Positions 48,936 to 50,340 of a stretch of 58,683 bases of DNA are shown here, in pieces; positions within the stretch are counted from its first letter, which is position 1; each line of letters opens with the position of its first letter. The notes under the pieces are model-generated. The model was not told where the DNA came from, searched no databases, and saw only the letters and a program-made list of their open reading frames with translations. A program made the position numbers and the translations under genes. This DNA comes from Negaprion brevirostris (Eukaryota): assembly GCA_030324005.1 (NCBI GenBank), contig JARDVH010000157.1, positions 13,993,685-14,052,367 of the forward strand. The letters are read 5' to 3'.

Positions 48936-49418
48936 CAAGGTAACCACCTACATTAAATACAATTACGAATGTGAGACATAATGGGTCCGAATCTCCTTGG
49001 ACACAACAACTCCATAGAAATGCCAGGAGTACACCCACGTGAGACCAATAAGGTTGACTGACCTGCCATGTGAAGATGCCTTTCCCTATATTGCTTTATA
49101 AATATTGAATGTAGAACTCTTTTTTTTAAGAGGACTACAAACAGACAGATCTCAGCAGCACCATGAATTTTGGTCACCGTGTTTTTGCAACCCAACTCGG
49201 GAATCATTTCTGTTTTACTAGTAAAATTGCAATGTTTTATTGCATGTTGTAATAGATGTTGTATTAGAGCGTCACCAAACTGAGAGAGAGACAAACCTTC
49301 CTCTTATAAAATATTCATTGCAGAGTGCAGGTGGTCTTAAAACCACAGTGTTGTGTTTAGTCTCTCCTATGTTTTAAAATATTGTACTGAAGAATAAAGA
49401 TTGGTCCAGATAACATAG

Positions 49419-49492
49419 TACTAACAATTGTTTTTTTGTTTTTCTTTTCATGTACCATCTAATTTACCTGCACTGTATACTTTCAGGTAAGT
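49419..49492 (+). promoter_or_regulatory. Candidate recursive splice site (3'ss immediately followed by 5'ss)
   Basis: TACTAAC at 49419-49425, ~60-nt AG-free U-rich tract, TTTCAG|GTAAGT with the junction at 49486/49487. Confidence 0.55.
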
Positions 49493-49809
49493 TTCTTTAC
49501 AGTTTTTATTCAAGTAGAAAACATTAACCCAACAATAACTGATGCTTAATTATATATCAACAAATGTCAACAAGCAGAAGGAAAGCCATACCACACACTA
49601 TTACTGTAGTACACCTTTGTAAGCAGCTTCCAAAGATAATTTGAGGCGTACTGTCCTTGCATACGCTGCCTGTGTAATTAAGAGTCCTATTCATTCCTAA
49701 AGTAGCATGAAAACATTTTGGAAATCGAGAATTTTATTTTTGTTAATATGCCAAGATATATTTCCTTTCATGTGAACACTATAGTCCAGTGAAACAGCAA
49801 AACCAAATT

Positions 49810-50167
49810 ATTTTCCAGAAAAAGCAAAGCGGAGACTTAATAGAAGTCTCAACCAAAATAATGAAGTGTGTTGTTAGAGGAAAAAGGGAAGAACAATTTG
49901 CTCTATTTGGGGAGTCAGTGACAGTTGGTTACCAATTTAAAATTAGTGCTTAAACAGTGAGGAAAAAAGTTGAGAAGCGTCTTTACACAGGCAACTGTTG
50001 GAGCATGGAATGCTATGCTGCAGGCAATGATGGAGGCAGAGACCATATCTGTTTCAATGGAAATTTGGATAAATATTTGAAGCAGAAGAGGATACAAAGT
50101 AATAGGCACAGAACAGGGGATTGGCATTAGTTTGTAATGACTTACCAAGAAATCTTCACAAAACCAT
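49810..50167 (+). mobile_element. Old CR1 3' end; its terminal 3'UTR appears to resume at 51121-51157
   Basis: GDLIEV..KIMK...TGGAATGC...TTGGATAAATATTTGAA; ATGGCCTCCTTCTATGCTG after the insertion. Confidence 0.75.
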
Positions 50168-50340
50168 TTGCAGCTCCTTGGGTACTGAAGCAATCTGATG
50201 CAGCAAGACTGGGAACTTTGTGTGGCAGCTCTGAGATGAATTATGTGAACTATACCAATATGCACACTGTTAGAAACCTTCCTTTGACTAACTCAAGTTA
50301 GCCTCCTTAAATTTGATGCATTTACTTCATTTGGTGCATT

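Follow-up and report, generated by a model that had tools for sequence, protein, structure and literature searches.

Does an AG that directly abuts a GT deep inside a long shark intron (AG at 49486, GT at 49487; YAG|GT, a 3' splice site joined to a 5' splice site) serve as a recursive splice (RS) site through which that intron is removed in steps? The stretch of DNA analysed here, called the window, is 58,683 nt long; positions are those of the window unless a contig (C157, C163 or C121) is named. Its place in the genome is as follows.

Window 1-58683 (C157:13993685-14052367), + strand: middle of intron 1 of the SKI ortholog, located by a PF08782 match, a PDB match and the exon map.

The host gene encodes the ortholog of SKI, a broadly expressed protein. 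The c-SKI Smad-binding domain (PF08782) is encoded 44 kb upstream on the + strand, and in the PDB the domain exon prefers human Ski (220 bits) to Ski-like (177 bits), whereas the preference is reversed for a second copy on C163, which is SKIL. Seven SKI coding exons were mapped by tblastn with the protein of a 98%-identical relative, giving a coding span of 172 kb. Exon 1 ends at C157:13949723 (AGG|GTGAGC) and exon 2 begins at C157:14107492; 43,961 nt separate the former from the window, and 55,124 nt lie between the window and the latter. The whole intron (C157:13949724-14107491) measures 157,768 nt, of which 144,257 nt are readable. On the sense strand of this intron, the site is separated from exon 1 by 93 kb and from exon 2 by 64 kb. 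A sequence-only reading of the window had placed it inside a long + strand intron and had proposed that the flanking scaffold would name the host; the scaffold does so, and the placement was right. Among the 120 proteins listed, the closest named one is from electric ray (95%), followed by coelacanth (91%) and birds (89%), an order that suggests a place for this genome among the cartilaginous fishes. In the three closest of these 120 (P0001-P0003; 98%, 98% and electric ray 95%) exon 1 is joined directly to exon 2. The mature product of relatives thus carries no trace of the site, and the same would be expected were the site unused.

Some features of the gene were recorded in passing. SKI exon 2 (C157:14107492) itself starts with AG|GT behind 95 nt free of AG, more than at the other three acceptors checked, and its first residue is Val in most of the vertebrate homologues shown. 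Intron 1 also holds a microexon-like element of 8 nt (C157:14070923-14070930), in which an acceptor scoring 4.8 is followed by eight bases ending in AG and then by GTAAGC; its inclusion would shift the frame. The last SKI coding exon (C157 about 14121151) shows a frame shift in an A run relative to P0001, likely an assembly error. On C163, about 32 kb behind SKIL, lie exons (C163:6542082-6545294) of what we take, from their translations, to be the V2R/calcium-sensing-type receptor family.

All the splice-like motifs named by the sequence-only reading (TACTAAC at 49419, CTAAT at 49459, TTTCAG|GTAAGT at 49486/49487 and TTT|GTAAGC at 49619) are present base for base, and the site can be laid out as below.

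49290-49650, + strand: slowly changing block, with 6 changes in 361 nt in the relative X11 against 62 in the rest of its contig.
49305-49311, + strand: TATAAAA at the start of the conserved block; such words occur at 0.64 per kb in SKI intron 1.
49419-49425, + strand: TACTAAC, whose A (49424) is the predicted distal branch point and lies 62 nt ahead of the acceptor.
49428-49449, + strand: U-rich tract behind the distal branch point, 37-58 nt upstream of the AG and within the AG-free zone.
49459-49463, + strand: CTAAT, likewise with a predicted branch point, the proximal one, 24 nt ahead of the acceptor (A at 49462).
49481-49486, + strand: TTTCAG, predicted 3' splice site (score 3.6).
49487-49492, + strand: GTAAGT, a donor that joining to exon 1 would recreate as AGG|GTAAGT (score 6.6).
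49487-49618, + strand: predicted RS-exon of 132 nt with 31% GC.
49619-49624, + strand: GTAAGC (TTT|GTAAGC), weak donor closing the predicted RS-exon (score -0.5).

Splice scores of the shark sites come from a rough splice matrix, not from MaxEntScan. The AG-free zone, put at about 60 nt by the earlier reading, counts 66 nt (49419-49484, with the previous AG at 49417-49418 and the next at 49485-49486), and a zone this long precedes just 1.4% of the AGs in SKI intron 1. RS sites usually have their branch point at a distance of 20-50 nt (PMC6110456). The acceptor score of 3.6 falls inside the range of four real SKI acceptors (3.2-7.1), and its pyrimidine content, 14 in the 20 nt before the AG, is lower than that of 17 among the 20 proven mouse sites (PMC8797253); the word 'textbook', by which the site had been introduced, therefore overstates the acceptor, and SKI does not belong to the long neuronal adhesion genes. 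The rebuilt donor would be stronger than the native donor of exon 1 (6.6 vs 5.4), with U1 matches of 8/11 vs 6/11. As for the claim that the DNA is non-repetitive, 451 nt around the site have one match only in the 2.69-Gb assembly and are thus single-copy, no repeat of the site exists in the surrounding 259 kb, and there is no tandem repeat; Rfam gave no match for the site at E<=1. A U12-type or non-AG acceptor was also considered for the site and dropped, as the motif is lacking. The segment 49401-49500 is predicted to fold into a hairpin in which the donor side is base-paired to the proximal tract; the fold of the whole segment has -14.8 kcal/mol, a value given no weight here.

Even before any joining to exon 1, CAG|GTAAGT has the form of an optimal donor (score 8.8). 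GTAAGT might be a donor only and close either a cryptic internal exon or an alternative first exon whose promoter lies inside the intron; TATAAAA at 49305, close to where the conserved block starts, is a candidate for such a promoter, and the U tract would then be exonic. There is a precedent in the second CADM2 site, which overlaps an exon from a minor promoter (10.1101/2025.08.14.666599), and the second site of the same intron described below has an acceptor 71 nt upstream. However, every one of the 16 AGs up to 260 nt upstream of the site scores -0.8 or lower, so that none of them could plausibly open an internal exon with its end at 49486; the fallback offered by the sequence-only reading, an ordinary U-rich exon ending in a donor, lacks a usable acceptor over this distance. 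An exon end that is AG-free over 66 nt, 50% U and equipped with two branch motifs is also hard to explain as an exon. As to the promoter version, TATA-like words are common in the intron, and the region, with 31% GC, lacks any CpG-island-like rise. We consider a donor-only role quite unlikely.

What follows the acceptor resembles the body of an RS-exon. Read in the frame of exon 1, the predicted exon meets an in-frame TAA (49547-49549) as its 21st codon, and its GC content is low (31% vs 44% at the end of exon 1). The donor at 49619 is the first downstream donor scoring above -2, and the rebuilt donor is far stronger (6.6 vs -0.5). The weak donor at 49619 and the in-frame stop bear out the RS-exon anatomy that had been put forward for this DNA, and the predicted anatomy fits the features reported for human RS-exons, namely a weak downstream donor, a stop codon and low GC (PMC6110456; 10.1101/2025.08.14.666599). 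The same parts would also suit a conserved poison cassette exon, in which the acceptor at 49486 would be used, the 132-nt exon mostly kept through the 49619 donor, the transcript degraded and SKI dosage tuned. In X11 none of the three parts this requires, the acceptor, the stop codon and the downstream donor, has changed, and both flanks are conserved, as is typical of regulated exons. This version supposes that the rebuilt donor is blocked, for example by the exon junction complex, which is known to repress recursive donors (PMC6224609). Birds do carry an alternative exon in SKI intron 1: an insert of 34-37 aa lies between exons 1 and 2 in five bird SKI proteins (P0015, P0026, P0029, P0107 and P0110; 5/120 listed), and seven other SKI proteins of the 120 listed have unrelated inserts of 14-96 aa at the exon 1/2 boundary. 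Yet the bird exon has no counterpart in the shark intron (tblastn with the 12 inserts, best E 0.15), and the closing donor is very weak beside the rebuilt one. A poison exon is thus quite unlikely in our judgement.

The site is not alone in its intron. A twin lies on the same strand at C157:13989847, 3.8 kb before the window and 53 kb upstream of the site, and is built of CTAAT, a pyrimidine tract, 69 nt without AG and CAG|GTAAGC; its core is single-copy, and a repeat fragment starts about 110 nt downstream. Among 525 sense AG|GT sites scored with the rough matrix, over a stretch 1.8 kb longer than SKI intron 1, the site and its twin rank 1 and 2. They stand at 59.2% and 25.4% of the intron, respectively, and would divide it into pieces of 40.1, 53.3 and 64.3 kb. 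The twin (C157:13989776-13989896) is preceded, 71 nt upstream, by an acceptor of its own (score 3.6) and followed after 50 nt by a donor (score 2.8), and it could be a distal-exon or dual-specificity site: like the sites so described in PMC10156609, it ends a possible exon, here of 71 nt, whose body resembles a branch point plus pyrimidine tract. The site at 49486, having no upstream acceptor, is not of the type described there (PMC10156609).

How often such motifs arise by chance was estimated in several ways. YAG|GTRAG occurs only once on the + strand of the window, at the site, and four times on the - strand. A strict filter (YAG|GTRAG, an AG-free zone of at least 50 nt and at least 16 pyrimidines in 25), whose thresholds were chosen after the site had been seen, passes 2/3 sense YAG|GTRAG in the intron vs 1/123 in 1.68 Mb of control DNA made up of the antisense strand, the flanks and the SKIL and CDH4 regions (Fisher 0.001; 0.03 for the twin alone). 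The number of strict-filter sites expected in this intron is 0.087 under an order-5 Markov model (15 Mb simulated) or 0.20 by an independence estimate; the probability of two or more is then 0.004 or 0.017, respectively, and that of one or more, by which the twin should properly be judged, 0.08 or 0.18. With looser thresholds, two or more sites have a probability of 0.037 or 0.13. A filter derived from mouse (the motif plus 14/20 pyrimidines, from 20 proven sites, with no AG-free rule) picks the site and its twin again, 2/7 sense sites, together with 7 control sites, most of them from one repeat family (P 0.12). One strict-filter site is found by chance in about 15% of windows of this size, and an exact TACTAAC stands beside only 3/1031 comparable acceptors. 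The motif alone is suggestive, not decisive.

A common repeat (at window 29750 on the - strand and in many places on C157, C163 and C121) has AG|GT(A/G)AGT behind a run of pyrimidines and is chiefly responsible for the false recursive-like motifs of this genome. The sole control passing the strict filter, C121:36722252 (AG-free over 67 nt, CAG|GTGAGG), lies on the sense strand beside a repeat, 29 kb before a CDH4-like exon 2, and a donor, a recursive site and chance are all possible there. The region of the paralog SKIL has no passing site and shares no intronic element with SKI near the sites. As positive controls, shark orthologues of CADM were sought and not found, the matches being nectin-like, neurexin and other genes; HS6ST2/3 were likewise not found. 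Mouse Cdh4 has a proven recursive site (PMC8797253). The CDH4-like intron 2 is 295 kb long with 31.6 kb unreadable (10.7% N), and in it neither a sense site passing the strict filter nor a non-repeat AGGTAAGT with a pyrimidine tract turned up. The CDH4 control neither validates the filter nor supports sites common to sharks and mammals.

Twenty runs from nine studies match part of the stretch 48940-50210, none of them recorded as RNA. Comparison with relatives used contigs at 80% likeness from organisms D (X11), F (X16) and G (X18), all of which cover the site; that of organism H (X19) does not reach it. X11 has 68 substitutions in about 1,230 nt, X16 has 79, and X18 has 7 in 310 nt (depth 2.7). 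The differences were taken from 40 listed of 123 places, and the X11 rows were judged complete up to 49836 from the order of the listing. In X11, 24 changes fall in 48965-49289, 6 in 49290-49650 and 10 in 49651-49836; the slowly changing block 49290-49650, its boundaries drawn after the data had been seen, gives p 5e-5. Conservation had been named by the sequence-only reading as a check on its proposal. Over the 207-nt span it had delimited, X11 has 5 changes vs 63 in 1,023 nt (p 0.03; 0.089 on listed rows only), a change slower than in the flanks at p 0.03 to 0.09 in this one relative; the relatives compared are only about 6% diverged, and the slower change therefore says nothing on deep conservation. 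X11 shows no change in either branch motif, the acceptor, the donor or the RS-exon donor, with P 0.087 for the 33 core bases alone. One T is missing from the U tract (49428-49449) in X11 and X18, and a change at 49427, shared by organisms D and G, puts a new AG immediately after TACTAAC; this AG would do no harm if CTAAT serves as the branch or if it lies too near the branch.

The 114 nt upstream of the branch point (49290-49403) are unchanged in X11 (P 0.0002), which is more than a bare acceptor needs, and this is where a conserved element without a splicing role has to be weighed. The block would then be an enhancer or an RNA-protein binding region, and the splice-like words in it chance or an unused decoy. 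TACTAAC at 49419-49425 is also a QKI/SF1-type ACUAA element, and QKI can repress ACUAA branch sites in competition with SF1 (PMC13004596), so that silencing by QKI is conceivable here. Such an element would agree with the conservation reaching 114 nt upstream of the branch motif, with core bases that are not significantly constrained by themselves, with the roughly 1 window in 7 that holds a passing site by chance and with human SKI being without a read-supported site in the tables searched. It accounts less well for a conserved block that has AG|GT at its centre and stops about 30 nt past the RS-exon donor, or for the scarcity of exact TACTAAC at comparable acceptors, and the same-strand twin requires a second chance event (P 0.08-0.18). 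On balance we regard an element of this sort as unlikely.

We propose instead, and give it an even chance, that the site at 49486 is a recursive splice site with a cryptic RS-exon, one of a pair that would allow SKI intron 1 to be removed stepwise; its use would more probably be partial, in some transcripts, than obligatory. At first, U2AF/SF1 and U2 would recognise the branch point, the U tract and the AG at 49486, and recognition of the acceptor would be assisted by exon definition, with the weak donor at 49619 marking the other end of the 132-nt RS-exon. Exon 1 would then be spliced, directly or via the twin site, to 49487. This joining would rebuild AGG|GTAAGT, which would out-compete the RS-exon donor, so that the rest of the intron would be removed to exon 2 and the mRNA would keep no trace of the site. 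Occasional use of the 49619 donor would insert the stop codon and lead to nonsense-mediated decay.

Should they prove to be in use, the site and its twin would be the first recursive splice sites reported from cartilaginous fish and from SKI within the openly readable literature searched, and fixed-site vertebrate recursive splicing would extend beyond neuronal adhesion genes to a developmental transcription regulator. A search of that literature by title and abstract returned nothing on recursive splicing of SKI or on splicing of the SKI intron, and nothing on recursive splicing in sharks beyond one unrelated review. The earlier suggestion was that a chondrichthyan example would bear on the age of vertebrate recursive splicing; the gain for dating the mechanism is small, since recursive splicing is already known in zebrafish (PMC5126111) and flies and has been suggested in lungfish (10.1101/2024.12.11.627982).

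Within the Ski/Sno family, two known systems invite comparison. Human SKI intron 1 (73,242 nt) holds two predicted AGGT sites, hg19 chr1:2186375 and 2203455, at 34% and 57.7% of the intron, with PhastCons of 0.82 and 0.999 and moderate acceptor scores of 7.2 and 6.7 (PMC6110456 S1 Table). Gene, intron and number of sites are the same as in shark, and the position of one site is close (57.7% vs 59.2%), whereas the other differs (34% vs 25%) and both human sites are motif-and-conservation predictions only. They come from a set of 36,870 such predictions, about 1.7 per long intron (PMC6110456), so the match in relative position is weak evidence. Human SKI is absent from the read-supported tables searched in that source (files 11 and 12 of PMC6110456), and SKI is absent from the supplements covered of PMC10156609 (Hoppe), PMC13622621 and PMC8797253 (mouse brain). 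The union table of five human studies in PMC13622621, which takes in the 434 putative sites of Sibley 2015, has no chr1 + entry between 2,148,668 and 2,305,501 (after lift-over).

The other comparison is with the fly gene FBgn0085450, which we take to be Snoo, the Ski/Sno homologue. Four recursive sites are listed for its 78-kb intron, and two rows are of high confidence with junction reads (PMC6110457). Like the shark intron it is a long Ski/Sno-family intron divided by AG|GT sites; unlike it, it has four sites, with junction reads behind them. Since recursive sites are common in long fly introns, the likeness may be convergence. Stepwise removal of the intron behind the first coding exon could be an old trait of Ski/Sno genes, retained in fly, shark and, at a weaker site near 58% of the intron, human; we find this quite doubtful. 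Were it true, the human site would control how much of a TGF-beta repressor is made, and deep-intronic variants would become candidates for SKI-related disease.

Vertebrate sites with cryptic RS-exons have been described in CADM1, CADM2, HS6ST3, PDE4D, ANK3, ROBO2, OPCML, NTM, NCAM1, LSAMP and CDH4 (Sibley 2015 as cited in PMC6110456, PMC5126111 and 10.1101/2025.08.14.666599). In mouse, 15/20 proven sites have the motif AGGTAAGT and 75% lie in first introns, and the host genes tend, though not as a rule, to be over 294 kb long and brain-specific (PMC8797253). The shark host departs from this pattern, for it encodes a TGF-beta/Smad co-repressor where the known hosts are neuronal adhesion or signalling genes, and its SKI intron and gene are shorter (a coding span of 172 kb vs >294 kb in mouse). 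The proximal tract is also weaker, its pyrimidine fraction of 0.70 being near those of Hs6st3 (0.75) and Ncam1 (0.60-0.65), and the shark site, unlike the proven ones, is a prediction from sequence. In other respects the two agree: AG|GTAAGT lies in the first and longest intron, which exceeds the 51-kb criterion for long introns, and it is followed by a predicted RS-exon with a stop, low GC and a weak downstream donor. Local conservation may be a further likeness, and the shark SKI intron would share the presence of more than one site per intron with CADM2, PDE4D and LSAMP.
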